This document shows, piece after piece, positions 1,689 to 34,452 of a stretch of 37,468 nt of DNA. Source of the stretch: a virus. Taxonomy: Duplodnaviria > Caudoviricetes. Below the pieces are notes generated by a model, which saw only the letters and a program-made list of their open reading frames with translations, had not been told where the DNA came from and did no database searches. Position 1 is the stretch's first letter, and every line of letters begins with the position of its first letter. Position numbers and translations under genes: made by a program. The stretch spans positions 1-37,468 of IMG/VR virus record IMGVR_UViG_3300037423_002659. One strand, given 5' to 3'.

Positions 1689-1775
1689 CCGCCTCAAGTG
1701 AACCACTCCGACCGATGGGATTCGAACCCATGGTTTCCTCGGCTAGTACGCAAGCCGAAGTGATTCATTTCAAGC
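1689..1775 (-). ncRNA. Long-stem structured RNA motif, copy 1
   Basis: GCTTGAAA-TGAATCACTTCGG...TCGGAGTGGTTCA-CTTGAGGCGG; encloses a T-loop hairpin ATGGG-TTCGAAT-CCCAT. Confidence 0.65.
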
Positions 1776-1856
1776 CAGCCTACCGAGCCCCATGCTCGAC
1801 AGACAGACGCGCCAGCTTCACTCAGGAGGCCCCGCCGAAACGAAGCTCGCGGTTCT

Positions 1857-8999: not shown

Positions 9000-9082
9000 G
9001 GATGCTCCTCGACCGAGGAGCCGGGATATTGCGGGTGGTTCAAGATTATGAGCCGGTCAACTCGTGGTCAACCGGCCCTAGA

Positions 9083-11775: not shown

Positions 11776-11785
11776 CTTTTCCTCC

Positions 11786-12673: not shown

Positions 12674-12674
12674 G

Positions 12675-13937: not shown

Positions 13938-13941
13938 AGCG

Positions 13942-14340
13942 TTACCCCAAAAGAATGATAAGCGAGCACCACGCCTTCGTAGCCGAGGTACCGCCGTCGA
14001 AATTGAAATTTACATCGATGCTTCGATCGTCGTTTCGTGCCCACTTGAACTTGTCGACCGAGAGTCCACCTGAATCGATCGGTATGACACCCTTCACGCT
14101 CAAGTTCCGAGCCCCAGTCGGAAACGGGTTGATCGACTGATCCACATCGTGAGTGAATTGCAGTCGTACGATCTTGCAGAGCACGTTGTCCTCGAACGTC
14201 ACCCCGTTCTGAAGAGTGTTGCCGACCTTTTCAATGAACTGGTTGAGCGGGTCCAGAAGAGCATCAATCCACTTCGGAATGTCCCCTCCGCCCTTCGCCA
14301 GATCCTGTCGATCGATTCGTTTGAGCGTGCCAAGTTTCAT
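13942..14340 (-). CDS. Hypothetical tail-associated protein (from MKLGTL)
   Basis: ATGA overlap with the upstream stop; synteny. Confidence 0.65.
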   Translation of the reverse strand: MKLGTLKRIDRQDLAKGGGDIPKWIDALLDPLNQFIEKVGNTLQNGVTFEDNVLCKIVRLQFTHDVDQSINPFPTGARNLSVKGVIPIDSGGLSVDKFKWARNDDRSIDVNFNFDGGTSATKAWCSLIILLG

Positions 14341-16835: not shown

Positions 16836-16886
16836 GTCTCACGAGCCTAGGAGCCGGGAACAAATCAAGCGGGTAAAAAAATCTTA

Positions 16887-17834
16887 CTATCTCTGAAACG
16901 CACTTAGGAGTCCATTTCGCGCGGAGACTCTCATCGGTGAACTCTGAACACGGTTCTTCACCATTGCGATCGCCTCAGCGCGTGCCTCTTTGAGCTCGAC
17001 CTTTGCCGCTGCGAGCTTGTTCATGTCTCCAAGAGCTGCAACGAGCCTCACGCCCATCATCTGATCAAGCACGGGATGGAACTCTTCAGGTATCATCGGG
17101 ATGTTCGAGTATCCAGCCGGACACACGTAGTCACCGATCTGAGGCTCAACTGTGCCCGCCTCGTTTGAAATCGCAGATGTCGCGACTTGGATCTGGGTCG
17201 TTGAGATCGCCGTGAGGGAGACCTGTTCCGCCCAGAGAAGGAATGGACCCGTCGCACTCACGATGTCGACCTTCGACCCCACGGACAGCGGGAAATCAAG
17301 CCCCGTGTCGGTCAGGTCCGTGTCGATCGTGATCGTAGTGGTTCCTCCAGCACTCGAGATATCGGTGATCGCAGCGCAGTTTGTCGTCGAGATGAGTCGG
17401 TTCGGCTTCCGGTAGTACTGGAAGAGCAATGATCCCGTTGCCACTTCCGGCGCAGGGCAAATCACAACCTCATCACCCGCAAAATAAAACTTCGAGGGAG
17501 TTCCGGTTGAACCAGCAAACTCATGGCGTCGGCTCGGCTCGATGCGATCTAGCGGATGCTCGGTGCCTGATGAATCGACATAAAAAAGCGCGACGAGAGT
17601 GCTCCCGATCGCTCGTGGTGGGATCGAATAGTGATCCACCCCTGCTTCAAGCGTCGACGACCTCGAGGTTAGGAAGAAATCCTCCCGAACTTTCATGAGG
17701 TCAGAGACGACCTTCAGCAGGAGCTCGTCATTGGCGATCGTAATCAGATCCGACGTCTGAAACGTGTTCTGAGAGATCGGCGCAAGTGTCCTGAGCTTTG
17801 CTCCGGCAATCCGGTCCTCAATGAAGATCGACAT
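16887..17834 (-). CDS. Head-tail adaptor / tubular protein A-like
   Basis: DLITIANDEL N-terminal helix, GTPSKFYF, IPEEFHPVL motifs seen in podovirus adaptors. Confidence 0.7.
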   Translation of the reverse strand: MSIFIEDRIAGAKLRTLAPISQNTFQTSDLITIANDELLLKVVSDLMKVREDFFLTSRSSTLEAGVDHYSIPPRAIGSTLVALFYVDSSGTEHPLDRIEPSRRHEFAGSTGTPSKFYFAGDEVVICPAPEVATGSLLFQYYRKPNRLISTTNCAAITDISSAGGTTTITIDTDLTDTGLDFPLSVGSKVDIVSATGPFLLWAEQVSLTAISTTQIQVATSAISNEAGTVEPQIGDYVCPAGYSNIPMIPEEFHPVLDQMMGVRLVAALGDMNKLAAAKVELKEARAEAIAMVKNRVQSSPMRVSARNGLLSAFQR

Positions 17835-17837
17835 GGA

Positions 17838-18173
17838 TCACATTCCTTTCGCCTTCATAAGCTTCCGCAAGCGTTCGTGCGGGAGCAATCCATCCTCATC
17901 GAGGCTCTCGCCATCGTCCTCTACAACAGGATCGTGCTCGAGTTCATCTCCTTTGAGCTCCTCGACGCCTTCGGCCGGAAGCTCATCCTGGTCTTCCTCG
18001 AGAGCTTCTTCAGACTCGTCATCGATCTTAGGATCACCCTTTTCGACCGAGAGAATCTCGAGCTTTGCTGGCTTCTTCCCGTCTGCCTTCGACTCCGCTT
18101 CCTCGCCCTCGCCCATCATGTCGAGGTCCTCAATCAGTTTGGAGAGAAGCTTATTTCTCATCGCAAGGTTCAT
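17838..18173 (-). CDS. Highly acidic hypothetical protein
   Basis: Asp/Glu-rich; RBS GGAAGGGG before ATG 18173. Confidence 0.6.
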   Translation of the reverse strand: MNLAMRNKLLSKLIEDLDMMGEGEEAESKADGKKPAKLEILSVEKGDPKIDDESEEALEEDQDELPAEGVEELKGDELEHDPVVEDDGESLDEDGLLPHERLRKLMKAKGM

Positions 18174-18174
18174 T

Positions 18175-18450
18175 TCAGTTCCCCTTCCTATCTGGTTCAA
18201 GGCGGCCTCGGATATAACTCACGTCGACCGCAATTCGGTTCATGTTGTCCTGCATATTGTCGAGACGCTTCTCGACCGAGAAGACCCTTGCATCCACCTG
18301 AGCGAATCGCTCATTCGCATCGGCCTTGCTCTGAAAGTAAGTCGTCAGCCAGAGCGTTAACGACGCGATCGTGAAGCAAGCGGCGACCGTCTCGGCGAGC
18401 GAGAGCCGCCATTTCAACAGTAGATTCGGCTCCTCAGAGACCTTTTGCAT
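18175..18450 (-). CDS. Membrane-anchored coiled-coil protein
   Basis: One TM helix plus coiled coil; TAATG coupling to the upstream small ORF. Confidence 0.65.
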   Translation of the reverse strand: MQKVSEEPNLLLKWRLSLAETVAACFTIASLTLWLTTYFQSKADANERFAQVDARVFSVEKRLDNMQDNMNRIAVDVSYIRGRLEPDRKGN

Positions 18451-18623
18451 TAATGGCTCCGCATGTACCAAGGGATATCAGCGCACTGGAATAGGCCCTT
18501 ACCGAGAGGCTCGCATCCTTCTTGAATATTCTGCTTCACCCGGTATCTCGCACAGCCAGAAAGAGCGGCACAAAAATAGAGCGCCGCTACCAAGAAGAGA
18601 AGGATAACGATTTGAGCTTTCAT
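18450..18623 (-). CDS. 57-aa lipoprotein (absent from the ORF track)
   Basis: MKAQIVILLFLVAALYFCAALSGCARYRVKQNIQEGCEPLGKGLFQCADIPWYMRSH; lipobox LSGC; RBS GAGGTGAGG; fills the gap exactly. Confidence 0.75.
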   Translation of the reverse strand: MKAQIVILLFLVAALYFCAALSGCARYRVKQNIQEGCEPLGKGLFQCADIPWYMRSH

Positions 18624-18626
18624 TCC

Positions 18627-20579
18627 TCACCTCGGTCCCATGCATAGGACATGAATGGTGTCTGAAGACCCCGCAGCCGTATTGGATACAAACGAGAAGG
18701 TACGAAGTGAAGTAGCCGAAGAAATGGTCGCACTACACGCGCGCGCATTGTTCGTGTTGTCAGTGCAGCTACAACTAGGGCTAGACGAGAATCCCGACAT
18801 CGTCCATGAGCAATCGCCAGCGCCATTTCGTGCTGAAGTTGAAATCCATGAACCGCTTTGCGAGGTGACGTTGCATGCAGCTCCAGTGTCCACAAGAGTT
18901 GCGCGCTCAATGCGCTCAATGCTCGTAGAATTGGTCACGACCTCACCTTTAAGAAACGGGTTGAGACTAACCTCAGCTGGCGAGGCCGCCCACGTACCGG
19001 CAGTAGTTTGGCTCGATTTAATTCGGCCGATCAGCCGGAGAGGCTTGGAAGTCTGAGCCGACGAGGTATAGAGGACGCTGTAAGAGTCTGCCGCTCCCGC
19101 TCCGCCTTCAGCGGTTGATGATTGAAGACTGCCATCATCAAAGAGCACGCTCGATACACCGAGAACAACCGTGCCCGCGTTGTCGAGGGCATAGACGTAG
19201 ATGTATGAGGTAACTCCGTTCTGAGTGCCCAGAGTCGAACCAGACGACACTGTAAGAGACAATGCACCTGTGACCGATCGCTGATTGTAGGTCCCCGTCG
19301 TTGCAGTCGAGTTTCTGAAACCGATCAATACCGGTGATCCTGCCGAAGGATCGGAGCCGGCCGAATCCTTGAGCGCAATCGTCATGGCGTTGGCGGCTAC
19401 TGACACTGACAAGGAGAGGTTTGAATTCTGGTCACTCGCACTAGGAGCCGAAGCCGGTGTTGCCCACTTTACACCGGTAGATTGTGCTGAGTCCGCTGTC
19501 AGTACCTGACCATCCGATCCAACCGCGAGCCGAGTCGGGCTTGATGCACCGGAGGTCGCGAGGATGTCACCCTTCGTGGTGAATGTGGATTTGGCGACCT
19601 TCGCATCCAGCTGCGTTTGCACATCCGAGGTCGTCGTTGAGAGATAGCCGAGCTGCGTGGCTGTCGTCGCCGAGTGTGTCGGGATTCCGTTCGCATCTGA
19701 CACGAGTGCTCGCGATGCAGTGATCGCGGTGGCCTCGACAATTGCTCCGCCGGATGACTGCATCACTCGGTTGTTATTGAGCGCCGTGGCCGAGTTCGTT
19801 CCTCCATTCGCCACAGGGAGAGTTCCAGTCACCGCACTCGTGAGTGGAATATTGGTGAAGGTGTTGCCAGACCCACTCATTGCTTTGTTGGTCAATGTGT
19901 CCGTGGTCGCGCGCCCAACCAGTGTGTCGGTCGAAGTAGGAAGCGAAAGAGTTCCTGTATTCGAGATCGTCGAGATGACCGGCGTCGTCAGCGTCTTGTT
20001 GGTCAGCGTCTGTGTCGTATCGGTCCCGACAAGAGTCGTGCTCGCATCGGGAACAGTGAGTGTTCGAGTCGTAGCCGTCGTGATTCCACTCAACTGGAAC
20101 GCAAGCTTCTTTGTCGAATCAGCGTCATCAAAGAGATTGAAGAGCGAGTCTTTGAAAAGAGGACCGCTCGAGCTCGCAAGCACGAATCCGTTGTACGTGA
20201 GCTGGTCCGATGAGTCGACACTGAGAAGCAAGTTTCCTGAGTTCACAGCGTTTCGCCAGCCGATCGATTCGGCGTTCCCAAGACGGAGAATACCTGCGGT
20301 CGGCAAATTCGATGCTCGCGACTTGAAATAACCTGACTTCAAGCCAAACGACGATCCGAAGTCGACATCAGCATTGAGCGAGAACGTGCCGCCCGATGGC
20401 TGAAGCGTGTACTGCGAGATCGCTTGGATCCATGCCGTGACGTTCGTTCCCCACCCCTTTTCGTTCGTCTGAGGGATGGTGTGGTTCGTACCGTTCACGG
20501 TGACTGTGACGGACGCAAATGCAAAAAGCGGCACGAGGATCACCAGTGCCGCGAGGATGCGCTTCAACGAAGGACGCAT
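18627..20579 (-). CDS. Tail fibre-like Thr/Ser-rich protein with N-terminal signal-peptide-like sequence
   Basis: [19 protein letters not shown] and TTKGDIL...[15 protein letters not shown] fibre motifs; [23 protein letters not shown]-terminus; RBS AGGAG. Confidence 0.75.
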
Positions 20580-20593
20580 GAGCTTCTCCTAAT

Positions 20594-20989
20594 TCAGAGC
20601 GACTCCACGATGTAGAGGATCGCTGTTCCTGATTTCGCATTACCGGCATTCGCTACCGTGAAGGTATGAGTGCCGCATAAGAAAGCGGGAATCGATGAGC
20701 CCGAAGGCGTTGGATAGACCTGCTCGGTGTTCGCCGTATCGCGATCAGCTCCGGCACCAGCCAGTGCGTCGATGCTGTTTTCATCGACGAGCGTGATGTC
20801 GTAGTTGTCCGTCGGCGCGGCCGAGCCGCTCGGGACTGTCACCATCTTCAGCAAGAAGCCATAGAGGTTCTCGATTGAGAGGGTGGCGTTCCCAGATGCA
20901 TCCGAGGTCCAAGCGACATTGACCTTGTCGATGTGTTTTCCACGAGGCGCACTCCGCGGATCACGAGTCGCAGTGACTGTTCCAGCCAT
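20594..20989 (-). CDS. Putative virion protein
   Basis: Beta-rich 131 aa; strong RBS AAGGAGGT. Confidence 0.65.
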   Translation of the reverse strand: MAGTVTATRDPRSAPRGKHIDKVNVAWTSDASGNATLSIENLYGFLLKMVTVPSGSAAPTDNYDITLVDENSIDALAGAGADRDTANTEQVYPTPSGSSIPAFLCGTHTFTVANAGNAKSGTAILYIVESL

Positions 20990-21001
20990 CAGACACCTCC
21001 T

Positions 21002-21538
21002 TTAAGACGCCGAGCCGTAGTAGTGAGTCTTCTCAGCTTCGGAATTCGTACCACCTGCCATGCGAGCAGCACTCACCGAGCCATGCGCGGAGATGGCAAG
21101 TGTCACCCCATTTCCAAGCTCACCCGGGAAAAGAGCCGTGAGAGTCACGACACCAGACGCCGAAGTCGCTACGACCATTCCGTCGAGCGTGGTGTTGGCA
21201 TTGATCGCGGCAGCGAGAGCATCTGCCGTTAAAGCATCGCTTGCCCCTACGTTGTACTGGTTCCCCGTGGCACCCGATGCAACGCAGGTGAACGTGATGC
21301 CGTTAACGGTGACGGTGTCAGTTGCAACGTGCGAAGAGAGAGTGATCGTGCCCGTGGCCTTTACAGCATTCACGCACACTTTCACTGTCGCTTGCCGAGC
21401 GCCGCCCATAAGTGAGCGGAGATAGTTCATGAGCTTTTTGCCAGCCAAGAAACGATTCCCGGTCTCTGCATGAACAAGCGCCTGCATGTCCGCAGAAGAT
21501 TCGGGCTGATCAAGGATGATCATCGATTGAATCGACAT
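21002..21538 (-). CDS. Putative capsid decoration / virion protein
   Basis: Ala/Thr/Gly-rich, immediately after the major capsid gene; RBS GAGGAG. Confidence 0.65.
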   Translation of the reverse strand: MSIQSMIILDQPESSADMQALVHAETGNRFLAGKKLMNYLRSLMGGARQATVKVCVNAVKATGTITLSSHVATDTVTVNGITFTCVASGATGNQYNVGASDALTADALAAAINANTTLDGMVVATSASGVVTLTALFPGELGNGVTLAISAHGSVSAARMAGGTNSEAEKTHYYGSAS

Positions 21539-21562
21539 AAATAAGACTCCTCATATGAGCCA

Positions 21563-21595
21563 GGGAGCGGGTGCCCCTTTCAGGGCCCCGCTCTC
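21563..21595 (-). terminator. GC-rich hairpin after the capsid gene (no U-tract; attenuator or stabiliser)
   Basis: GAGAGCGGGGCCC-TGAAA-GGGGCACCCGCTCCC. Confidence 0.4.
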
Positions 21596-21615
21596 TGATG
21601 TTTTGTGGTTCAGGA

Positions 21616-22839
21616 TCAGACGGTCGTGTTCACGATGCCCGTGAACAGGATGTTCTGTGCGGGGGTCTCGGAGATGATGCCCTGGTTGGTGTAGATACGA
21701 GCCTCAACACCAGCCTTCGACTGGAGATGGAACCAGGGAGTGCCGCCGAAGCCAGGAGCGCCAAGCTCGAGGTCGACAGAGCCCACGCGGCGCCAGCCAG
21801 GCGTGAAGACAGCGTGTCCAAAGCCCTCTTTCACCATCGGGTGAGAGTGGACAACGGTTACGCCGTTCTGCGAGCGGTACTCGATCTCCTCGGTACCGAT
21901 CGAGACCTTGCGAACATCCTTTTCAGACGTAACGCGAAGAGCTTCGATCGAAGTCTGGAGGTCGTCCCATGCGCCCGGGTTCAAGAAGAGGTCGATCTTG
22001 CCGTAAAGGCCCTTACCGACCGCCTTCGAGATGCCCTTTTTCAGAGCGCCGAACGAGAATGCACCGCCGACAGCGTGGCTTGTGCCCTTCCAGAGCGAAT
22101 AGGTCGCTGCATCAATGCCGAAGAGCGAGCCCGTGTTGTTCTGGATGTAATGGATGCCGAGCAGTTCGTTGCCGTATCCACCTTTCACGCGGATCACGTC
22201 GCCCGCAGCGCAGCCAGTGACTGTGCCCGAGAGCGTGATCTTCTTGTTCTCGATATCGACGCCCGCGATCGTGACGGTGCCACGAACAGTCGAGGTCGTG
22301 CTCTGGTGAACGTCGATCTCAGCGCCTTCAAGGCCAGCCCAGATCTGCGGCGCCCACTGCGCGGTGGTGATGACAACCGACGGATCGCCCGAGGTGTAGG
22401 TGCCAACAGTTCCGATGCCCATGCCGCCGTAAAGGAGCATCGTCTCAAGTCGCTTGCGCGCCGAGAGCTGCAGGCCTTCGTAGAAAAACTCGGTACCGTT
22501 GACGAACGAGCGCTCACCTTTTACGGCTTTGCCAGCATCCTCGTACGACATCTGATCGCGGAGCAGGATCTGATAAGGATCCATCTCGGCGTTCTTCTGT
22601 GTACCGGCCTTCGCGTCATTCAGCGAGAACGCTCCCGCGGTGCCGTCGCCTTTCGCGTGGGTGAAGCCGTTCGGGTACGCGAGGCGCACGCCAACGACGA
22701 ACTTGGAGCCGAGCTTCTCCTTTTCAGAGAAAGGGATCAGCTTTTGGATCTTCGCCACTTCCGGGATGAGGTTCGGAAGCGGGCGCTTCGAGTACACTTT
22801 TTTGTGAAGACTATTTAGATCCTCTACAACGTCAGCCAT
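21616..22839 (-). CDS. Major capsid protein
   Basis: 407 aa after portal and scaffold; LFGIDAATYSLWKG motif typical of this P22-coat-like group. Confidence 0.8.
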   Translation of the reverse strand: MADVVEDLNSLHKKVYSKRPLPNLIPEVAKIQKLIPFSEKEKLGSKFVVGVRLAYPNGFTHAKGDGTAGAFSLNDAKAGTQKNAEMDPYQILLRDQMSYEDAGKAVKGERSFVNGTEFFYEGLQLSARKRLETMLLYGGMGIGTVGTYTSGDPSVVITTAQWAPQIWAGLEGAEIDVHQSTTSTVRGTVTIAGVDIENKKITLSGTVTGCAAGDVIRVKGGYGNELLGIHYIQNNTGSLFGIDAATYSLWKGTSHAVGGAFSFGALKKGISKAVGKGLYGKIDLFLNPGAWDDLQTSIEALRVTSEKDVRKVSIGTEEIEYRSQNGVTVVHSHPMVKEGFGHAVFTPGWRRVGSVDLELGAPGFGGTPWFHLQSKAGVEARIYTNQGIISETPAQNILFTGIVNTTV

Positions 22840-22938
22840 TGAAAACTCCTGAGTGAATCCTCCGGAGCCGGCTGAAGGCGTTGTAAATCTTGAAGCTCGA
22901 TACGAGTGCGGGATCGCCTCGAGCGATTAATTTTTTTG

Positions 22939-24009
22939 TCAGTCCCTGAGATCGTCACGGAGAGACTTTAGGTACTCTCGGTACTCGAACTCATTCATGG
23001 GTTTTGATTTCTGGATCTTGTGGCTTGCAGGCTGATTGCCTGGGCGCTGCTGGTCCTTCTGATTAGGTACCGAGGACCGACCGGTCACACGGGCCACATC
23101 GAAGTCGCGAAGTTTCTGAAGGGTCTGCTTCCCGAGAACTTCTTGGATACCCTGCGGGTCCATCGACTCGAGAATTTCAGATACCGACTTCAGAAAGTCT
23201 TTCTTAACGATAGCAGCAGCCTCCTTTGCCTGTAAAGGCTGTTTCGTGCGCCGCTGGTGCGAGAGAATCGTCGCCGCCATAAGTTGCACGAAGTACTTGT
23301 GTTTCGGGAGGCCAGATTCTTTCCAAGCTCCGCCAATCTCGGAGTCGAGTGTCTCCTGCTCTTTCGCGTTCACCTGCTTTTGACTGTCGAGAATTTCAAG
23401 AAGCCGCTCTTTAGGTAGACGCTTAATCTCTTCCGGCGCCTTTGATCCGACGAGCTCTTCAATTTGCGAGATGAGTTCAGCCTTCGACTGCATCTCAGCG
23501 CGCTCGCGGTTTTCCTTCTCTTCTTTCAGTTCTGCGAGCTCGCGTTGCTCCGGCGTCATCTGCGCACGCTCGTACTTTCGAGCAAGCCGATTCTCAGCGA
23601 AAGTGTCGGCATCAAGGCCGGTCAGCTCAAAGAACTTGTCAGGGTCGTCCTTCGCAAGCTGAACGAGAGCAGCAGCACGTTTTCTCTCCTGTGCTGCCTC
23701 CTGCATCCGCTTTTGCGAGACCTGCTCGAGCTGCACGCGCTTGAGCGCCTCTCGAACGCTCATTTTCTCAACCTTGCCGTCAAGCTTCACCGTCACGAGC
23801 GCGTCGAGATCTTGCTCGCCGAGCTCTTTCAGTTGTTGCTTTGCGGACTTCTGAGTCGCTTTCTTCTGAGTTTGGCTCGCGCCTGAGTCCTCTTGGATCT
23901 CTTGCGCGTCCGCGCTGTCGTTCTCGAGCGATTCATTGTCGATTTCGGTCGTCTCGAGTGATTCGTCGCTCGATTCGGCCGGAGTTGCGTCCATGGCTGC
24001 TTCTGCCAT
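22939..24009 (-). CDS. Scaffolding protein
   Basis: Acidic N-terminus, VKLDGKVEKMS motif, coiled coils; between portal and capsid. Confidence 0.75.
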   Translation of the reverse strand: MAEAAMDATPAESSDESLETTEIDNESLENDSADAQEIQEDSGASQTQKKATQKSAKQQLKELGEQDLDALVTVKLDGKVEKMSVREALKRVQLEQVSQKRMQEAAQERKRAAALVQLAKDDPDKFFELTGLDADTFAENRLARKYERAQMTPEQRELAELKEEKENRERAEMQSKAELISQIEELVGSKAPEEIKRLPKERLLEILDSQKQVNAKEQETLDSEIGGAWKESGLPKHKYFVQLMAATILSHQRRTKQPLQAKEAAAIVKKDFLKSVSEILESMDPQGIQEVLGKQTLQKLRDFDVARVTGRSSVPNQKDQQRPGNQPASHKIQKSKPMNEFEYREYLKSLRDDLRD

Positions 24010-24021
24010 TGGGAATCCTCC

Positions 24022-24162
24022 TCATTTCTCAAATTTTTGCCGTTCTTCAGCGCGACAGCATTCAGCGCAAATTGAATACGTGATTGTCTTGTTTCGCGGA
24101 CGGCGGCCCTGAAAGATCGTTTTCCCACACTCTCTGCAGACGACCTTCCCGTGCTTTTTCAC
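24022..24162 (-). CDS. 46-aa zinc-ribbon protein (absent from the ORF track)
   Basis: GTG start; MKKHGKVVCRECGKTIFQGRRPRNKTITYSICAECCRAEERQKFEK with CxxC...CxxC; fills the portal-scaffold gap. Confidence 0.6.
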   Translation of the reverse strand: MKKHGKVVCRECGKTIFQGRRPRNKTITYSICAECCRAEERQKFEK

Positions 24163-24165
24163 CGC

Positions 24166-26226
24166 TCACCCCATCATTGGACTGGCTTGTGGAAGATCGG
24201 GCATGTCAGGAATCGGTGGAGCATCCGGCGGCTGCTGAGGCGGCCCTGCCGGAGGCGGTGGAAGCGGAGGTCCGCCTGGCCCCGGAGGCGGCATCATTCC
24301 CGGCGGAGGCATCGGCGGAGGAGGTGGCGGTTCGCCAGAGATCACCGCAAAGAACGGATCCTGCGTCTCGTGGAGCTGCTTGTGCTCAGCGATGTGCGCA
24401 AGGGTGTTCTGCACGATCCTCAGAGCAAAGGGGTCACCCTCAGCCTGCTTTGCGCGAATGAGCGGGTCATTGAGGATCGAGCGATGCTCCTGAGCGTGGA
24501 GGATGTGCTTGTCACCCACGAGTGCCTTCGCTGGTTTTCCATCCATTAGATCTTCGTTCTCTTTTCGGATGAGGTCGTTCTCAGTCTCCGGTGCTTCAGT
24601 CGCAGGATCGAGATTTCCTGTCTTGGCGACGGTGAAGTACTGCTGAGGATTCTTCAGCATCCCTTTGTCGAGGAGCTTGTCGGCAAGGTCCTGGCGTCCA
24701 GCAGCTGTGCGCGTGAGCGGGTTTCCAAGGTCCACAGCGACTCCACTGATGCCAGAGAGACTATCACCGTTGAACGCAGCCATCGCCGATCTGTTCATCT
24801 TTCCTACGCGGCCCGCAATGCGCTCAGTCTTCGCGAAACGCTGAAGCAGGAAGAACATGAAGCTTCCGCCATCCTCGAGGAGCTCAGCCCACGAGCGCTG
24901 GAAGTTCGACGAGAACTGAATTGCCATGGCCTGCATGCGACCGAGCGCTGCGCCTGACTTCAGGTTCTCCTGAGGATCTCCACGCACAACCGAGTTCACG
25001 CCAGAGAGCTTCTCCATCGCTCCTTCGACCACCTCAAGGTTCTTAAAAACCTCCGCGGGTGTCGCCGTGAGCTGAAGCGCCTCGGGCTTTGTTCCTGGCA
25101 GTCCGCCCTTCAAGATCGTGGCACCACGACCGAGCTGCTCGCCCGCAACTTCACACCCTTCAGGTAGCCAAATCGCTTGAGCCGCGAATGCCTGCTGATT
25201 CGAGAACGGAATCGAGATCAGGACGTTGTAGACCTCTTGGAGAGCCATAAGGTCGTTCGCTGGAGTGTATCCCTCGCCTGAGTCGAACATGACTCCAGGA
25301 GTGATTCGAAACTCCGGGATGCGATCTTCGTATGGAGTCGCGCCGTCGTAGAGTTCAATCTCCCCATTCAAGAACTTCGTGAATCGCCCGTTCTTAAGAG
25401 CGTCGGTGGTCTTGTGCACGAAGTAGTAAACCGGGACGAGATCATCCTCGCAGTCGTTATCTTCCTCCATGCCGGTGATATCTTTGATTCCCGTTCCAGC
25501 AAGTTCATCCTCAGATGAAAGACTCAAGATCTGGTCAGCCTTGTCCGGATGACGAGCAGCGAGATCCCACTTGTTCTCCCACTCTCTCCACCAAATCCAA
25601 TTTCGCTTGGAGTAGTCTTTGAGGCTCGTGTCGTAGCCAACGTCCATCGGGCCTTTTGCACGACAGTTGATGTCGCCCTCGTAGACGACCTTTTCTCTCG
25701 GCATACCGTTCTCATCAGCAACGGGAGCGCCTTCATTATCTAGGACCGGCGTCGTCGTGTACGGACGACCAAGGCTCGGATCCCAAGTCTCGATCACGTG
25801 ACCACGATCAAGGACGAGAGCGCGCTCGGCAGCTTCGACGAAGTAGCGATTCATTCGCTTCTCATCGAGATAGCTGTCGAGCACGATCGCACCGACTTTG
25901 GTTCTCTGAATTACTTCGAGATCAGTATTCTCTGCGCGAGGTTCGAAGTCTGGCTTTTGGGCCGTGGTCAACGCCAAGACGTGCTGAACGAGATTTCGGA
26001 AGTGATTCACTCCGAATGCAGTGAGTTCACCGTCATCGCCAACGAGCTCAACTGAGCCGGAGCTCAATGAGTCTTCACCGAGATGGCGGCCGTAATAGAG
26101 ATCGTACTTGCGTTCCCAGCGCCTACGAAGGCCCTTCTTCTCGATGTAGCGATTGTACTTCTTGATGCGTTTGGCGATTTCAGGAAGGAACTCAGCGGTC
26201 GGAAGGCTCGCCCAGTACTGCTTCAC
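24166..26226 (-). CDS. Portal protein
   Basis: 686 aa directly after TerL; SGVNSVVRG...SGAAL motif; Pro-rich tail as in P22-like portals. Confidence 0.85.
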   Translation of the reverse strand: MKQYWASLPTAEFLPEIAKRIKKYNRYIEKKGLRRRWERKYDLYYGRHLGEDSLSSGSVELVGDDGELTAFGVNHFRNLVQHVLALTTAQKPDFEPRAENTDLEVIQRTKVGAIVLDSYLDEKRMNRYFVEAAERALVLDRGHVIETWDPSLGRPYTTTPVLDNEGAPVADENGMPREKVVYEGDINCRAKGPMDVGYDTSLKDYSKRNWIWWREWENKWDLAARHPDKADQILSLSSEDELAGTGIKDITGMEEDNDCEDDLVPVYYFVHKTTDALKNGRFTKFLNGEIELYDGATPYEDRIPEFRITPGVMFDSGEGYTPANDLMALQEVYNVLISIPFSNQQAFAAQAIWLPEGCEVAGEQLGRGATILKGGLPGTKPEALQLTATPAEVFKNLEVVEGAMEKLSGVNSVVRGDPQENLKSGAALGRMQAMAIQFSSNFQRSWAELLEDGGSFMFFLLQRFAKTERIAGRVGKMNRSAMAAFNGDSLSGISGVAVDLGNPLTRTAAGRQDLADKLLDKGMLKNPQQYFTVAKTGNLDPATEAPETENDLIRKENEDLMDGKPAKALVGDKHILHAQEHRSILNDPLIRAKQAEGDPFALRIVQNTLAHIAEHKQLHETQDPFFAVISGEPPPPPPMPPPGMMPPPGPGGPPLPPPPAGPPQQPPDAPPIPDMPDLPQASPMMG

Positions 26227-27734
26227 CTGATTCTCCTCGTCTTAGGGCCGAAGAGCTTTGCGAGAGCGTCTTCGGTAGTCCCCTGCGAGCCGGATACAGG
26301 TGGCAAGTGATGAGTGTACGGGTTCAATCCGTGATACTGCGGGATTGGATTGAACTTCGTGTCTATACAACGATTAAGGTAGAGCGCCGCCGCAATGGCG
26401 TCAAGGTGACCTAGCCCTTCTGTCCGCCGGAAGTCGGTCTTCATGTGGTCCTTCCACATCCCGACCCGCATTTGCTCTCTGAGATTCACGCATTTGCTTT
26501 TGACTTTGAACCGTCGGAGACCGACATCGGCTCGCCAAGCATGGATGGCGGCTCGCTTGTCAGTTTTGTCCGCCGGAGCCATTGGATACTTGTAATCAGC
26601 GTAAAGATCGAAAATTACCTGCTTGTCTGAATCGTAAACGCGCTTGCGCGGTTTCGGCATGTATGTCTCAAAGAGCTTTTGGACCTTTTCCTTCGTTTCA
26701 GCAACGTCGACTCTGGCTGCCAAGTCCTTAAAGTCGATCGTCCGATCCGAACCCCAGAGTTCGAGTTCCTTTAATTTTGCAAGACTCGTGATTACACCCG
26801 TCGTTTGACCATTCACCACGATTTCGTCTTCGACGATGAACTCGGCTTTGAGGAAGTCGTAATAGCCGAAGAGAATGGCGGTATTGTCGTCAGCACCTGA
26901 GTCACCGCCAACGTACGTCGTGAAAAATTCCGGCCGCGGGTAATCGTCTGGCACGACATTGCCACCGTCGCCGACGATGTCAGAATATTCGGGCACTACG
27001 AGAAGCTCAGGATCGGCAACCTCTTCACATAAACGTTCTCGACGGAACGAGGGCGAATCAACTCCGCCTGACTCCTCAATGATCTCCTGAAGCTCTTCTG
27101 GCGTGAGCGTCTCTTTGTCATAGATCGTCTTCGAGACGAATCGACTGCGACGTTTTGCTTCCTTCTTTTCTTTGTAGTAGGCGTGTCCAAGTTCTTCAGC
27201 CGGTGTCGAAGCTTTGATGAGCCAGCGGCCCTCTTGTCCTTCAAGCTGAGGGAGAAGGCAGGACTTTACAACATATGTCGGATCAGTCCAAAACCCGTAC
27301 TCGTCACAAATCAAGATGTTCGCCGCAGGACCGCGAGCAGAGTTTCCGCGGTCCTCGTTCACGCCTCGAATAAATAGTCTCGACCCACCTGGGCCCTCAA
27401 ATACTGAGTCGACCATCTTGTATTCAAACCGATAGCCCGCCGGTGCCCAGGTTTGGATCTTCTCCATCTCCGGGATCATGACCTCTCGTGCCTGGTTCTT
27501 GTTCGGAAAGCACCATCGACAGATCCAACCAGGATGCCGGAGAAGTTGTTCAAGTACGAACGTGAGAAGCGACGTGGTCTTGCCGAAGCGTCGAGCAGCC
27601 TCCACAAATGGATAGTGCTCGCGCACGAGAAGATCATAGATGTCCAACTGCGAATCGCGAAGATACCAGGCTGCGATAATCCCGTTGGCCCACAGCGCAC
27701 TTCGAGACCGCGCCGCTTCTGGAGAAAGAATCAT
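26223..27734 (-). CDS. terL: Terminase large subunit
   Basis: Walker A ARRFGKT, Walker B ILICDE, coupling motif ASTP, nuclease GGDSG...D and HLDAIAA. Confidence 0.92.
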   Translation of the reverse strand: MILSPEAARSRSALWANGIIAAWYLRDSQLDIYDLLVREHYPFVEAARRFGKTTSLLTFVLEQLLRHPGWICRWCFPNKNQAREVMIPEMEKIQTWAPAGYRFEYKMVDSVFEGPGGSRLFIRGVNEDRGNSARGPAANILICDEYGFWTDPTYVVKSCLLPQLEGQEGRWLIKASTPAEELGHAYYKEKKEAKRRSRFVSKTIYDKETLTPEELQEIIEESGGVDSPSFRRERLCEEVADPELLVVPEYSDIVGDGGNVVPDDYPRPEFFTTYVGGDSGADDNTAILFGYYDFLKAEFIVEDEIVVNGQTTGVITSLAKLKELELWGSDRTIDFKDLAARVDVAETKEKVQKLFETYMPKPRKRVYDSDKQVIFDLYADYKYPMAPADKTDKRAAIHAWRADVGLRRFKVKSKCVNLREQMRVGMWKDHMKTDFRRTEGLGHLDAIAAALYLNRCIDTKFNPIPQYHGLNPYTHHLPPVSGSQGTTEDALAKLFGPKTRRIR

Positions 27735-28171
27735 TACTGGCCCACGAACTTCGCTCTCAAAGCATCGATCGCGACGTTCCGCTCATGGATCACTGCTGTG
27801 TGAGCCTTGTCGACTGTAGCGAGAAGCTCCTCGAACTTGGCCAGCATCTCAGCCTTAATCGGGCCATCATCAGCGTGTTTCATCAACTCAGCGAATGGTA
27901 CCTTTTCAAGTTCACGCTCAACTTTGTCAGCAGCGACACTCGCCGTGTGCATGATGTTTGTAAGCTCAGTGAAGATCTCTGTCGCGACCGAGGTGACTGC
28001 CGCCTTCACCGCCTCTGCATGCTGAGCCTCGGTGTACTTTGCTCCTCCAGCTGCTGCGATGTCTTCACGCTCAAGACGACGGCCGTAGCCGACGTATTTC
28101 ATGAATGTCACGCGCATGTGTTCGGTATCGCGTCCAACTTCGTTATCAATCAGGTTGCTGACTTCGCTCAT
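27734..28171 (-). CDS. Hypothetical helical protein
   Basis: RBS GAGGAGG; TAATG coupling to terL. Confidence 0.7.
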   Translation of the reverse strand: MSEVSNLIDNEVGRDTEHMRVTFMKYVGYGRRLEREDIAAAGGAKYTEAQHAEAVKAAVTSVATEIFTELTNIMHTASVAADKVERELEKVPFAELMKHADDGPIKAEMLAKFEELLATVDKAHTAVIHERNVAIDALRAKFVGQ

Positions 28172-28181: not shown

Positions 28182-28589
28182 TCATGTTTTACTCAGGCCT
28201 TCGACGCCGCGGGCTTCACGATCATTGGTTCGCTTCTCAAGCCACAACAGGCACTCGTCGAGCTTCGTGATCGCCATCGAGTTCTCGCGACACGGAAACT
28301 TCGCGTTCAGTCCTTCAAGGATGACCTTCGTAGCAGCGATGATCGTGTTCACCTGGCATCCATTCACACCTACCTCTTTGACAGGGCCATTTTGGATGGT
28401 GAACGAGAGCGAGTTTTTATCGTTGCGAACATAGATGAAATGATTGGGGCGGATGTCCTTTTCGAACCACTGCCAATCCATCGCGCCCGACTCGTTGAAC
28501 TTGTCAGGGAACTTCTCACGAAGTTCATCCATCACCACGACGTTAAATCCGTCGATCTTCTCTACCCCTTTGAGTGTCTCAAGTGCCAT
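28182..28589 (-). CDS. tad1: Tad1-like anti-defence sponge protein
   Basis: IQNGPVKE..NG...FPCRENSMAITKLDECLLWLEKRTNDREARGVEG matches the Tad1 C-terminal pattern as recalled (FQKG...[31 protein letters not shown]). Confidence 0.75.
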   Translation of the reverse strand: MALETLKGVEKIDGFNVVVMDELREKFPDKFNESGAMDWQWFEKDIRPNHFIYVRNDKNSLSFTIQNGPVKEVGVNGCQVNTIIAATKVILEGLNAKFPCRENSMAITKLDECLLWLEKRTNDREARGVEGLSKT

Positions 28590-28611
28590 ACTCGCCTCCT
28601 ATCAGTTTAAG

Positions 28612-28692
28612 TGGCTCAGGTCGGACTCGAACCGACAATGCTTGCGCGACGGCTTTTGAGGCCGCTGAGTTTACCTTCTTCTCCACTGAGCC
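28612..28692 (-). tRNA. tRNA-Leu(CAA)
   Basis: GGCTCAG/CTGAGCC acceptor, anticodon loop CT-CAA-AA, variable arm, GTCGG-TTCGAGT-CCGAC, discriminator A; CCA not encoded. Confidence 0.9.
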
Positions 28693-30578: not shown

Positions 30579-31783
30579 TTTTCTTCTCCGTTTCCTTCAG
30601 GCCACACTTGCTCGAATTCAATCCGGCGTTCAGCGATCTCAAAGTATTGCGGATCTCGCTCGATGCCGATGAAATCAAAGCCCTCTTTTGCGCACGCGAC
30701 ACCTGTCGTACCGCTACCCATGAATGGGTCGAGGCATACGCCGCCTTTTGGAGTCACGAGACGCACGAGGTATTGCATGAGTTTTACGGGTTTCACGGTT
30801 GGATGCAGATTGTCTTTTCCGCGCTCGCCTTTCGAAGCTTTCGCCACATAGAAAAAGCGAGAGGCGCCAATTTTATCGCCATCATCAAGGCGTCGTACGT
30901 TGTGTTTAGCCCCCATATGATAAGCGGCTGAATCTTTGCGAGCCTCCGACTCAATCCATTTATCCCGAGCCTTCCCGGCCGAATGAATGCCACCCGCAAT
31001 ACTCTGCGCATCGAGCATTTCCGCCGCCGTCTCGTCTAGCAGAACATTGCTCGGGAAGCGGCCGAGAGCGTGTTGCTCACATAAAATGCCCTTTGCACCA
31101 TTTCCTTGAGTGAGTCCATTCATCAATTTGCCAGACCCTATTGACAGCTTCTCCGACGTCTCAATCCGGCACCCATCGATATTCAAACCGCCGCAGCCGT
31201 ACTTCAGCACATTCGCCGCGATAGTTCCTTCGACCGGCTTTCTCGCGAGCACGATTGGTTCATTCGCTGGCTTTAAGGCTGTGCCCCAGCCAGACCAATG
31301 TTTCGCTTCGGGCGTTGCAGGCGCGGTGATGACTAGATTTGAGTCGCGCGAAATCGGATCAGCAAAAGTTGAGTTGCCACCTAGCTTTTGTGTCTTCCTA
31401 GCTTTTGAACCGTCCGCAAAAGTCTTATCACCAATCACTTCCCGCTCAGCCCCAGCCGCTTTATCAATCGCCTTCGAAATATCGAGCGACTTCGGGAATC
31501 CCTGACCGTAAATCCATTGAAGCTGATCGCGAATCTCGAAACCCGCATCCTCAATTCGCACAACGCCGCGATGATAGGTGCGCGTCCCGAAGTACGCGAG
31601 AAGGTGCCCGCCCGGTTTCAGTACGCGTATGCACTCGCGCCATACTTCGACTGAAGGCACGTCGTAATCCCATTTCTTTCCCATGAACGCGAGGCCATAA
31701 GGCGGATCAGTTACGACGCTATCGACTGAGTTGTCAGGGAGGGTTTTGAGTTGCTCTAAGCAGTCACCGAGGAGAAGTTTCAT
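30575..31783 (-). CDS. DNA N6-adenine/N4-cytosine methyltransferase (beta class)
   Basis: VTDPPY catalytic motif before HPTVKP and DPFMGSGTTG SAM-binding motif. Confidence 0.93.
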   Translation of the reverse strand: MKLLLGDCLEQLKTLPDNSVDSVVTDPPYGLAFMGKKWDYDVPSVEVWRECIRVLKPGGHLLAYFGTRTYHRGVVRIEDAGFEIRDQLQWIYGQGFPKSLDISKAIDKAAGAEREVIGDKTFADGSKARKTQKLGGNSTFADPISRDSNLVITAPATPEAKHWSGWGTALKPANEPIVLARKPVEGTIAANVLKYGCGGLNIDGCRIETSEKLSIGSGKLMNGLTQGNGAKGILCEQHALGRFPSNVLLDETAAEMLDAQSIAGGIHSAGKARDKWIESEARKDSAAYHMGAKHNVRRLDDGDKIGASRFFYVAKASKGERGKDNLHPTVKPVKLMQYLVRLVTPKGGVCLDPFMGSGTTGVACAKEGFDFIGIERDPQYFEIAERRIEFEQVWPEGNGEEK

Positions 31784-32268
31784 TTCTCTCCCCTTGCTAT
31801 GCGAATCACTTCGATGAGTTTTTCAGCTGAAAGATCGAGTTTCAGCGGTGCCGAATCTTCACCGCCGCCTTCGAGAGCCATCTGATGCTTGTCTCGCCAC
31901 TCATCGGGCTTCCGATTCTTGAGCCAGAAGATCGCTGCTGTAACATCAGGCGGATATTGCTTCATCGTCTCGTGAGTGATGATCATGCCTTCGTGACAGA
32001 ACACCTTCTCTTCACGATGGGAGTAGCCGACCGCGCGGGAAAAGAGAGAAGCTTCGACCAAATCGTCTGCGACCTGCTTCGATTCGTTTAGGGCCCACAT
32101 AAAGTCGGGATGCTTGCCCTTCCAGTTGCGAAGCGTGTTGACATGGATGCCAATAATCTCGGCGATTTGTTCCTCAGTCTTGCCTGCAGAGCCGAGCTCA
32201 AGAATTTTTTCCTTCACTGCCACATTAAATTTGCTGGGCCGGCCGATCGGATTTCGCTCTTCGCTCAT
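31780..32268 (-). CDS. terS: Terminase small subunit
   Basis: GRPSKF, HTH, SLFSRAVGY, PPDVTAAIFWLKNRKPDEWRDK. Confidence 0.88.
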   Translation of the reverse strand: MSEERNPIGRPSKFNVAVKEKILELGSAGKTEEQIAEIIGIHVNTLRNWKGKHPDFMWALNESKQVADDLVEASLFSRAVGYSHREEKVFCHEGMIITHETMKQYPPDVTAAIFWLKNRKPDEWRDKHQMALEGGGEDSAPLKLDLSAEKLIEVIRIARGEK

Positions 32269-32498
32269 CGTCCGATTCCTCTCGTGAGAGCGAGGCCGTC
32301 AATGCGATCCTTGAGCGCCAGGATCTTCTTCTCGAGCTCGACGATCTGCTGAGTGCGCTCACGCTCAATGAAATGAAGGAACCCGAAGAGAGCGCACGCA
32401 ACAGCAAAGGCAAGAGCCGTGGGATAGCTCGGAGCGAGCGCCAGGGCGAGAGCCGCTCCGCAGATCACGGCGGCAGAGAAGTGAAACTTGAATTCCAT
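32265..32498 (-). CDS. Small membrane protein (from MEFKFH)
   Basis: RBS GGAGG; two hydrophobic segments plus coiled coil. Confidence 0.65.
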   Translation of the reverse strand: MEFKFHFSAAVICGAALALALAPSYPTALAFAVACALFGFLHFIERERTQQIVELEKKILALKDRIDGLALTRGIGR

Positions 32499-32514
32499 TG
32501 AGCCTCCGGAGAAG

Positions 32515-32590
32515 TGGCTGCGGGACCTGGGCTCGAACCAGGAACCTTCTGAGTCAAAGTCAGCTGATCTACCAATTGATCTATCCCGCA
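32515..32590 (-). tRNA. tRNA-Gln(UUG)
   Basis: TGCGGGA/TCCCGCA acceptor, D-arm GATC, loop CT-TTG-AC, CCTGG-TTCGAGC-CCAGG, G-CCA end encoded. Confidence 0.92.
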
Positions 32591-32597
32591 TCTAACG

Positions 32598-32767
32598 CGC
32601 ACCAGGAGGGACGAGCGAACTCCCGGCTCCCCTATGGGGTGATGTTCGCCCTTCCCTTGAGCTACGACTTCAGCTCCGGAGCCCGCACTCCGCCCTTGGG
32701 CTCATTCGACCGGAGCCAATTCGGAAGCTGAAGGCTTCTCTTGCTCTTCTCTCATGCTTCTGGTGCG
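32598..32767 (-). ncRNA. Putative multi-stem small RNA at the head of the late operon
   Basis: Closing stem CGCACCAG/CTGGTGCG; inner stems CTTCAGCT/AGCTGAAG, GAGCCC/GGGCTC, AGGGA/TCCCT, GGGCGAAC/GTTCGCTC; seeds complementary to late-gene leaders. Confidence 0.65.
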
Positions 32768-32818
32768 TAGAGACTTCTCGCTCTTGAAAGTGGCAATTGA
32801 GCGTGCTGAAATCGCCTC

Positions 32819-33019
32819 ATGCAAAACGACATTCCTCGAATAAAGAAAGCCGTGCTCACGCAAAAGCTGAACATCGCCGTCGATGAGTCGACGAAGTCCG
32901 ACTACGACACCTTGAAGTCACGGCATGGGATTGATGTAGCTGAGTGTGTGCGCTCGGCCGTGCGCCGAGAGATCAAACGCCTGAAGGCGATCGTCGCTGA
33001 AGAGAATCAGTCCGCTTGA
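32819..33019 (+). CDS. Ribbon-helix-helix-like small DNA-binding protein
   Basis: KLNIAVD beta strand followed by two helices; own terminator downstream. Confidence 0.6.
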   Translation: MQNDIPRIKKAVLTQKLNIAVDESTKSDYDTLKSRHGIDVAECVRSAVRREIKRLKAIVAEENQSA

Positions 33020-33069
33020 CGACCACGCTCGAGAGATCGAGCATTGAACCTGTCCGGAGAGTCGCCTAG

Positions 33070-33097
33070 GGCCGCAGCATGGGGTTGCGGCCTTTTT
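33070..33097 (+). terminator. Rho-independent terminator
   Basis: GGCCGCAGC-ATGGG-GTTGCGGCC-TTTTT. Confidence 0.75.
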
Positions 33098-33669
33098 CAT
33101 TTCCGCGATTCTTTCAAACGCTTGATTTCATCCTCAAGCACCTTGATACGGACCTTCTTCAAGTTGAGATCGACCTCCAGCTTCCAGATCCGTGCGCTCA
33201 TCAACTCAGTTCCGGCCTTGTGTCCTGCACACCAAATTCGGTCTGTTTCCGCATCTCTCTTACTCTCATCGCCAGTCCGTAAGTTAGATCGCAAGAGGCC
33301 CGATCCCGTGTTTTGGTCTAGGCACTTCTGCCAGCCAGACTTGAACGCCTTTTCAGCAATGAACCTAGGGTCACTCCAAAAGTTCGTCGTGAGCATTTCG
33401 ATCTGCTGCTGGTTTTCAGGTTCGTTCCAAATCTCTTCCACCGACACGGGGGCGACGGGGTTTCTCTCGGGGAGGGCATTCGTTCTGCTGGCTTCCTCTG
33501 CCGCGAGATAGCCACGGCAAAACGCTTGGTACTCGCCAACTGTATAGTCTCCACCATTCTCAGCTTCGTCCTTGTCGGCAGCACGGCAGACGTGCTTTGG
33601 ATGGCTGTATGGGCTATCCAACTCATCCTCGTCGAAGTCTTTGGGGAGGGTTTCTTTCGGTTTACTCAT
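33097..33669 (-). CDS. Hypothetical protein (MSKPKETLP family)
   Basis: RBS GAGGAG; starts inside a junction repeat. Confidence 0.65.
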   Translation of the reverse strand: MSKPKETLPKDFDEDELDSPYSHPKHVCRAADKDEAENGGDYTVGEYQAFCRGYLAAEEASRTNALPERNPVAPVSVEEIWNEPENQQQIEMLTTNFWSDPRFIAEKAFKSGWQKCLDQNTGSGLLRSNLRTGDESKRDAETDRIWCAGHKAGTELMSARIWKLEVDLNLKKVRIKVLEDEIKRLKESRK

Positions 33670-34024
33670 GGGATTTCTCCTCAGCCGTAAGTTGAAACAC
33701 CTTTGGCCAGTTCACCAGCGCCTCGTTCACAAAGTCCAAGGCAACGCCTTCATTTCTTAAAGTCCAATCGAGTTGGTTTTCTGCCAGCTCTTTCGCGGTC
33801 AACAAGAAGTGTTGAGCGTCGATGAGGTTTTTTCTGATTTTTTCCATCTCACTCACCGCCTCGGAGGCGACGGGTTGAGCGGAGGGGGCATTCTCAAACG
33901 CCAGGTCCAATTCCTTTTGCCGAATCTGTCGCTCGTATTCGTGTACGTTCTTCGTCGATAGCTTCTTCGTTGCGAGTTGCTCTCTGAGCCACTGGATTTC
34001 GGTTTCGATTTGTTTCTTATTCAT
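33662..34024 (-). CDS. Hypothetical coiled-coil protein
   Basis: RBS GAGGTG; ends EEKSHE in the junction repeat. Confidence 0.65.
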   Translation of the reverse strand: MNKKQIETEIQWLREQLATKKLSTKNVHEYERQIRQKELDLAFENAPSAQPVASEAVSEMEKIRKNLIDAQHFLLTAKELAENQLDWTLRNEGVALDFVNEALVNWPKVFQLTAEEKSHE

Positions 34025-34065
34025 CACTCACCTCATCGAAGCCACAGGGGAGGGTTTCTTTCGGT

Positions 34066-34452
34066 TTACTCATGGGACTTCTCCTCAATCGTAAGTGTAA
34101 GCCGCCGGTAGTCAGTCCGGGTCGTGCATTGCGTACATTCCTGCCATTCCGATTTTTCGTAGCCATCTTTGAAGTGCGTTACCCATGCTCGACCTTCGCC
34201 TCGGCAGAAGTAGCAATCGGCTTTAGGTTTTCCATCCGCCTCACTCACCGCCACGGGTGCGACAAGGGCTTTCAGTCGATGCGCAATCAACTGCGCTTCC
34301 ATAATGAATTCGAGCGCTGTCATCGCATAGAAATCGACAGGTGTTCCCTTTGTCGCTTCCAAGACCGTAACGATCCAGCGATGGGCGCCGATGAGTTTTT
34401 CTTCTAACTCACTCGCGTCGAAGGTGGGGAGGGTTTCTTTCGAATCACTCAT
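34066..34452 (-). CDS. Hypothetical protein with CxxC-CxxC module
   Basis: CYFCRGEG...CTQC; starts MSDSKETLP and ends EEKSHE. Confidence 0.65.
   Translation of the reverse strand: MSDSKETLPTFDASELEEKLIGAHRWIVTVLEATKGTPVDFYAMTALEFIMEAQLIAHRLKALVAPVAVSEADGKPKADCYFCRGEGRAWVTHFKDGYEKSEWQECTQCTTRTDYRRLTLTIEEKSHE

Follow-up and report, generated by a model that had tools for sequence, protein, structure and literature searches.

A structured phage RNA predicted to pair with late-gene leaders through phage-specific seeds

In a temperate provirus of 37,468 nt (IMG/VR record IMGVR_UViG_3300037423_002659; this entire stretch is called the window below), a minus-strand element situated between the replication genes and the packaging genes, outside any immunity region, appears to specify a small structured RNA. 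Judging from the sequences of the element and its counterparts in related phages, it would represent a real and apparently undescribed phage RNA family. We consider it highly probable that the RNA pairs with the leaders of late genes, and probable, on modelled site geometry, that it activates translation of these genes in trans. The element, whose RNA is itself predicted, likely acts as a phage-specific key that opens the hairpins over the ribosome-binding sites (RBSs) of its targets.

The element and its genomic setting

The window is a complete IMG/VR provirus; the integrase gene (1-1197) and the provirus status mark the phage as temperate, and it is probably podovirus-like. Nearly all genes are located on the minus strand, with the replication genes at the right end. 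Further genes are those for TerL (26223-27734), the portal (24166-26226, minus strand), the capsid (21616-22839), an SU10-type adaptor (16887-17834) and the nozzle (14337-16835, with a GTG start and a weak Shine-Dalgarno sequence, SD). The names scaffold, decoration and nozzle were given by position, in the initial annotation and by us, without a database match behind them. There are hints of a host in Bdellovibrionota: the one named integrase match of 73 (48% identical) is from Bdellovibrionales, and the TerL of a Silvanigrella phage matches at 27.6%.

Several other features of the genome could be of interest. A terminase-small-subunit PHROG match (31780-32268, minus strand) is found 4 kb upstream of TerL, and a second small ORF (27734-28171, minus strand) directly adjoins TerL; both are candidates for the working TerS. 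Three tandem paralogous genes (33097-34452, minus strand) carry near-identical stretches of 29-66 nt around their starts at a spacing of about 400 nt, and a protein coded at 1694-2083 (minus strand) consists mostly of the products of 6-nt repeats coding Gly/Tyr/Asn/Asp. Right after tRNA-Leu, the product of 28182-28589 (minus strand) has a weak Pfam match to the Acb2/Tad1 hairpin domain (E 0.0003, below cut-off) and is a possible anti-defence sponge protein.

The conserved core of the element (32604-32696, minus strand, 93 nt) is predicted to form a four-way junction made of a closing stem P1, hairpins P2 and P3, and a long arm P4 (MFE -43.6, z -2.08). For the whole 176-nt region the computed fold has -75.7 kcal/mol (z -2.67; 2 of 200 shuffles were equally good), and AGCCG is unpaired in it, in agreement with the multi-stem structure drawn by hand in the initial annotation. 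Both seeds described there are present in the sequence: seed A, GAGUGCGGG (32682-32690, minus strand), is placed in the P2 loop, and seed B, GGGGAGCCGGGAG (32620-32632, minus strand), in an internal loop of P4. The UGCG core of seed A is common to most relatives. Seed B, which is purine-rich and SD-like, is the phage-specific determinant; in the window RNA its computed opening cost is 6.2 kcal/mol, and the computed net energy of seed B alone on the capsid leader is merely -5.6.

Upstream of the core is a 5' extension (32697-32767, minus strand), whose first 8 nt pair with 32598-32605 in an outer stem. The extension can compete with P2 and P3, and it cuts the predicted exposure of seed A (unpaired probability 0.2-0.7 vs 0.9). 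These 5' 70 nt were recognised solely in the window phage and in a near strain (run X5), not in distant relatives. Rather than about 170 nt, as put forward initially, the functional unit likely measures some 93-110 nt, and the conserved core replaces the longer interval. The near strain has five substitutions in the core, none of them in the seeds; two keep P3 pairs, two are in a loop and one breaks a terminal pair.

Directly 3' of the element is a tRNA-Gln(UUG) gene (32515-32590, minus strand), absent from the initial annotation, and 5' processing of this tRNA would free the 3' end of the element. By our reading of a loose end at 32596, the near strain apparently has another tRNA in this place, and the slot may thus accept different tRNAs. 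The element itself does not score as a tRNA: ARAGORN and RF00005 score only 32515-32590 and 28611-28692, and Rfam 15 at the gathering threshold found nothing but tRNAs in the window.

The first gene after the element codes for a small hydrophobic protein of 78 aa (32265-32501, minus strand) for which no Pfam family was found at cut-off; it served as the synteny anchor. On the other side we found a divergent, previously unlisted ORF of 66 aa (32819-33019, plus strand), which has weak matches to CcdA (E 0.007) and PSK_trans_fac (E 0.078). We read it as a putative ribbon-helix-helix (RHH) regulator, and it is a candidate regulator of a late promoter. A terminator-like hairpin (33068-33094, plus strand) separates the RHH-like gene from the minus-strand operon upstream. 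No sigma-70-like promoter was detected within 31800-33800, and no intrinsic terminator was found after the core in the window.

Target sites and their covariation with the seeds

The initial annotation had matched the two seeds to four leaders (lysis, tail nozzle, decoration and capsid) and had taken these for the full set of clear non-coding gaps in the region. All four matches are in the sequence. The pattern CCCGC-N(2-14)-CYGGCTC, picked after the sites had been seen, occurs three times (9018-9035, 16851-16873 and 21557-21571) against a shuffle mean of 0.24, and 0 of 100 shuffles reached three. CYGGCTC alone is not enriched (20 vs 13.8 +/- 3.8 occurrences, with 8 of 100 shuffles reaching 20). 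Since the two-box pattern was chosen post hoc and the B box alone is not enriched, the window taken alone is merely suggestive.

Among the 28 seed-B matches in the window, the best four sense-strand two-box matches were those of capsid, lysis, nozzle and portal. The expectation that the four leaders would rank at the top of the genome was borne out for capsid, lysis and nozzle; the decoration leader was not among these four. The portal target, which had been missed, is located inside the 3' end of terL on the minus strand, with the A site at 26338-26343 and the B site at 26287-26293, 61-67 nt ahead of the portal start. A long hairpin here pairs with the portal SD; the B site occupies its 5' arm, and the opening gain is 5.8 kcal/mol. 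The scaffold gap (24010-24165) counts as a further such gap, and in the window phage it has no site.

The capsid target (22864-22912, minus strand) consists of CCCGCACTC (22904-22912) and CCGGCTCC (22864-22871). Its A site lies in the loop of an upstream hairpin and its B site on the anti-SD arm, and the opening gain is 10.2 kcal/mol. In the tail-nozzle target (16850-16873, minus strand) a 10-nt B match ends at -15, with a gain of 1.5 kcal/mol. The fourth target (9017-9035, minus strand) heads a probable lysis module. Here the B site is on the 5' arm of a GCUCCUC/GAGGAGC hairpin (opening gain 5.8 kcal/mol) which hides the SD of a 66-aa ORF (8799-8999, minus strand) with a TTG start and two hydrophobic stretches, holin-like by anatomy only. 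Of the target set proposed at first, the capsid, nozzle and lysis leaders stand and the portal is added, while the label "lysis" depends on weak matches (a tail-lysozyme PHROG and TIGR02594, below cut-off, at 6685-7911; an Rz-like match at E 0.0009). No leader variants were found among the matches listed (40 of 167) for contigs of runs X4 and X5 aligned over 8700-27000.

The decoration-leader match (21557-21571, minus strand) was rejected as a covarying target (5.5 vs 5.3 nt, 8493 of 20000 permutations). A strong hairpin formed locally sequesters its CCCGC, the seed-B match there requires a G-U pair, and the match probably reflects local anti-SD structure.

For the comparison, relatives (L002-L152) were gathered by searching with TerL, portal, capsid and nozzle, and complete records were retrieved. 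A search of genome contigs gave no TerL relative and four distant portals, one over 17 genomes of the phylum of G029 gave only G029 itself, and the exact 19-nt P2 pattern had 0 matches in viral contigs. The anchor gene marks the syntenic position in 13 non-redundant loci. We found a candidate element in ten of them (the window, G001, G002, G004, G005, G007, L026, L010, L024 and, weakly, L005) and none in G006, L037 and L019, where the anchor gene is present. The divergent RHH-like ORF is upstream of all ten elements; it is also present in L019, which is without an element.

The shape [[][][]], a closing stem around three arms, was the MFE structure in 9 of 9 well-defined elements (82-109 nt), a count inflated by picking the ends for a closing stem; 4-18 of 200 shuffles also show this shape. 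A covariance model built from G005 alone had the window core (32604-32696) as its top match, with exact ends (23.3 bits, E 0.024 in 81.6 kb), L024 as the second and G002 as the fourth, and the stems were aligned with changed yet paired bases. The models are insensitive: R1 missed G001, G004, G007 and L026 in long loci, and R2 missed G004, G007, L024 and L026 at E 5. For this reason, the single match of R2 over 80 sources, the window, is no proof of absence in distant phages. Since MAFFT core alignments left the helices out of register, we claim no pair-covariation statistic for the RNA structure, and the conservation of the fold rests on independent folds and covariance-model matches.

The position of the seeds within the fold is variable. 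Seed A is in the P2 loop, in P3 in G007 and in both loops in G001; seed B is at the apex of P4 in G001, G002, G005 and G007 and on an internal loop beside a side hairpin in the window, G004 and L026. A T8 run is directly behind P1 in G004. The candidate L005:3653-3736 was rejected as a full element and counted as weak, with 11 bits, E 3.4 and an MFE structure that is not a four-way junction; it has an RHH-like neighbour and a 7-nt portal match. L010 and L024 are without capsid leaders, and no 7-nt match was found in the portal leader of L010.

Within the close clade, a given phage has one and the same tag in its leaders, just 5' of the SD-hiding hairpin, and the tag varies from phage to phage. 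We observed that seeds and tags change together across seven related phages. Seed B and tag are GGAGCCGG and CCGGCUCC in the window, UUGGAGAUGGCA and UGCCAUCUCCA in G001, GAGCUGGA and UCCAGCUC in G005, UGGUGUGA and UCACACCA in G007, GAGCUGGGGA and UCCCCAGCUC in L026, GGACUAUC and (G)AUAGUCC or GUAGUCC in G004, and CAUUCAGC and GCUGAAUG in G002. The G004 tags have A or G opposite one seed U, which is wobble-tolerant. As G005 and L026 share a similar seed, these make at least six distinct codes. In L002, the nearest TerL relative of the window (78%), the tag is GCCATCTCC, not CCGGCTCC. The end branches of a quick portal tree have a median length of 0.53 (11 of 29 inner branches are open); the phages are thus well separated, and the seed-tag pairs are not copies of one event.

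Cognate complementarity was scored in fixed 370-nt windows anchored on the downstream gene and chosen independently of the seed. The cognate scores were 18 for the window phage, 25 for G001, 17 for G005, 19 for G007, 20 for L026, 15 for G004 and 13 for G002, and the element-less loci G006 and L037 scored 15 and 10. The 394 non-cognate pairs scored 12.4 +/- 1.5; six of these score 17 or more, among them the pair of G001 and L002, two phages with the same tag. In a blind whole-record scan (31 records), the element came first or tied first in five of the nine anchored phages; the elements of G002 and G004 were not at the top, and the 11 distant phages had no standout site.

Seed-target covariation in relatives, named in advance by the initial annotation as a check on its proposal, is strong. 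In exact permutations over -42..-12, the true assignment of RNAs to leaders was the best of 5040 for the capsid (seven phages), 4 of 720 for the nozzle and 19 of 5040 for the scaffold; for portal leaders over -82..-8 the figure was 66 of 20000 permutations. The cognate effect of seed A on capsid leaders is a weaker signal (258 of 20000). The control genes terL, g13942 and g12675 gave no cognate signal in permutations. The adaptor and g18627 leaders, also used as controls, were weakly positive (595 and 754 of 20000), and small effects are therefore at the level of background. The core-based permutations were limited to the 6-9 phages that have the element, with core ends placed around the seeds. 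In a test independent of the RNA, the portal leader and the capsid leader of a phage had a phage-specific word in common in 18 close phages (6.6 vs 4.6 nt, 0 of 20000); 10 distant phages showed no such word (5612 of 20000). The element of G001 has a 14-nt perfect match to the nozzle leader of that phage. The leader behind the last large virion gene has a site in 4 of 4 complete element-bearing genomes (window, G001, G004 and G007), the start codon behind it not being resolved in G007.

These comparisons bear on whether the matches are chance hits of GC-rich or SD-like words, with the element a mere tRNA leader or terminator cluster. The lack of enrichment of CYGGCTC alone would suit such a reading, as would the fact that anti-SD arms complement any SD-like word, which explains the decoration match. 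However, the non-cognate controls, which are equally SD-like, fail, and ARAGORN lists no tRNA beside the element in the relatives. We regard chance as hardly credible.

Some observations were made on the relatives along the way. In L002 the tag also occurs just before terL (L002:3512-3520), where no target was seen in the window. A non-coding stretch of about 320 nt upstream of tRNA-Asn (L002:2670-2990) lacks the complement of the L002 tag and may for that reason encode some other structured RNA. L026 has another 220 nt of GC-rich non-coding DNA with apparent hairpins between the element and the anchor gene (L026:8310-8530). The start codons of the nozzle genes are weak: GTG in the window, G001, G002 and G007, TTG in G004 and L018, and apparently CTG in G005. 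The capsid gene is split after codon ~40-85 in L013 (L013:5622-7108), L038 and L039, possibly by an intron or an insertion.

Site geometry and the direction of regulation

All 23 sites of at least 7 nt end at -11 or further upstream, before the SD, and no cognate complementarity was found in the SD/start window of -12..+18 (887/5040, 266/720, 368/5040 and 4902/5040 permutations). Most tags are computed to be on the 5' arm of an RBS-hiding hairpin. With the sites blocked, opening -12..+3 is predicted to be cheaper by at least 1.5 kcal/mol in 18 of 23, while control windows in the capsid, lysis, portal and nozzle leaders of the window phage had median gains of -0.3 to 1.8. Little or no gain was seen at the other five (the portal, capsid and nozzle sites of G005, the portal site of L026 and the nozzle site of G002). 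Three 6-nt sites outside the 23 had gains of 1.2, 0 and 0.

The activating role suggested initially is favoured by this geometry, since opening inhibitory hairpins would defeat the purpose of a repressor. Several duplexes, on the other hand, end 11-15 nt before the start, near enough to hinder the ribosome, and leave room for repression. The same pairing would have the opposite sign if the element were a lysogen immunity RNA similar to C4 or CI, blocking ribosome loading or triggering termination of late mRNA. Such a role would suit a temperate phage with an integrase, and the two-loop recognition with tags varying among relatives recalls the specificity of C4 (PMC5320573). But the SD-like seed B pairs with the anti-SD arm rather than with the SD or the start, so that binding is predicted to open most sites, the portal sites of four phages are far upstream, and the element is not in an immunity region. 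We consider an immunity RNA unlikely.

In four phages the portal sites are 57-79 nt upstream, inside terL codons, and in the window, G001 and G004 they are on the arm of a long hairpin; the distance and the hairpin-arm position fit RNA unfolding better than promoter spacing. The spacing between A and B varies from 1 to 50 nt, unlike that of promoter boxes, and the distance from B to the start from 11 to 79 nt. Both bear on the possibility that the tags act at the level of DNA, as late promoter boxes or as sites at which transcription is initiated within the hairpin by an RNA-guided protein or an R-loop. A precedent exists in T4 gene e and I-TevI, where hairpins silence late or lysis genes on read-through transcripts and a late promoter inside the hairpin lifts the block (PMC3014915). 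Pairing of the seeds with the non-template strand of the DNA is conceivable as well. Yet plain promoter boxes would leave unexplained why a covarying reverse complement is displayed in a loop elsewhere, the spacings track the arms of RNA hairpins, and no Cas- or TnpB-like family matched among the 53 ORFs scanned (PHROG, Pfam), most of which were without any match. DNA-level action seems very improbable to us; the predicted key here, different from that described for T4, is a complementary RNA.

Every target is downstream of the element on the same strand, and in the window the core is not followed by an intrinsic terminator. The element might accordingly be the 5' leader of a long late transcript that folds back on the downstream leaders in cis, with no free RNA. 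Against this, a single seed B would have to serve 3-4 sites over up to 24 kb (9017-26293 vs 32620), and the tRNA (window) or the T8 run (G004) right behind P1 offers a release route. Cis action appears improbable, if a little less so than action at the DNA level.

Under the preferred reading, activation in trans, the late operon would begin with a small structured RNA, transcribed from a late promoter situated between the element and the RHH-like gene. This RNA would be released as a discrete RNA by tRNA processing in the window and at the T8 run in G004, and would turn on translation by pairing with the portal, capsid, nozzle and probable lysis leaders. The P2 loop would touch the A site first, often the loop of an upstream hairpin; the SD-like P4 loop would next invade the anti-SD arm and free the SD (anti-antisense activation). 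With an RNA acting in trans, read-through or leaky late mRNA would be silent until the RNA accumulates.

Known regulators and the meaning for late-gene control

The CI RNA of P4 is grouped with the C4-type two-box antisense RNAs. The C4 antisense RNA of P1 and P7 recognises two separated boxes by two loops, and the loop sequence sets specificity among related phages (PMC5320573). The element resembles it as a small multi-stem phage RNA with two loop-borne boxes facing two separated target boxes, here by computation. Rfam searches at E up to 10 over 32400-33150 and seven element loci gave no match to the C4 covariance model. Maturation by RNase P at the 5' end of P1 is another trait of the C4 type. 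C4 occludes the RBS in an immunity system and its variable loop is the upstream-binding one, whereas the seed of the element pairs upstream with the anti-SD arm of several virion genes and its downstream-binding loop B varies most. Membership in the C4 group was rejected on model match, target position and genomic role.

Most alike in working is IsrK of the Salmonella prophage Gifsy-1, a short operon-head RNA that binds an inactive read-through transcript in trans and switches its translation on (PMC4825925). The single target described for IsrK is its own long isoform, through which it leads to AntQ; the element, by contrast, would serve 3-4 leaders of morphogenesis genes at a distance, by way of phage-specific tags and a four-way junction with two guide loops. 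In rpoS (DsrA, RprA) and shiA (RyhB), too, the RBS becomes accessible when an RNA pairs with the leader arm that inhibits translation (PMC13501541), and, among phage RNAs, StxS activates rpoS and PreS of lambda targets dnaN (PMC12197685). The seed of the element likewise complements the SD-hiding arm, with the gain of at least 1.5 kcal/mol at 18 of 23 sites given above. These RNAs act on host genes, while the element is predicted to act on the late set of the phage itself.

Synthetic toehold switches and riboregulators combine a cis-repressed leader with a cognate trans trigger in orthogonal pairs. The element differs from them in being natural and in presenting seeds of 7-14 nt in loops, in two parts, instead of a long linear trigger. 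Published lists of candidate structured RNAs from phage metagenomes could contain its motif. In the full-text literature searched, which takes in few subscription papers, we found no description of a multi-target late activator RNA of phages; SviR is a satellite RNA that lowers phage translation (bioRxiv 10.1101/2022.04.08.487710).

Late-gene control in temperate phages is usually ascribed to proteins, namely antiterminators, activators and late sigma factors. A single RNA licensing translation of the whole morphogenesis set would, if true, be a new layer of control. The six or more seed-tag codes in one clade provide ready-made specificity swaps, and the leaders and the cores of 82-109 nt are compact enough for reporter pairs in which phage growth is not needed. 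Such leader and core pairs could serve as natural orthogonal riboregulators.

A broader reading, which we find conceivable though on balance somewhat doubtful, is a late switch made entirely of RNA, in which translation of the virion and lysis mRNAs of the clade is locked until a single four-armed RNA, its guide loop exchangeable, releases the whole set. If so, the switch would be both a timer of late genes and an identity code, since only the phage's own key would work, and the key of a co-resident prophage or a satellite could not start morphogenesis. The family would then be a natural library of orthogonal riboregulators.
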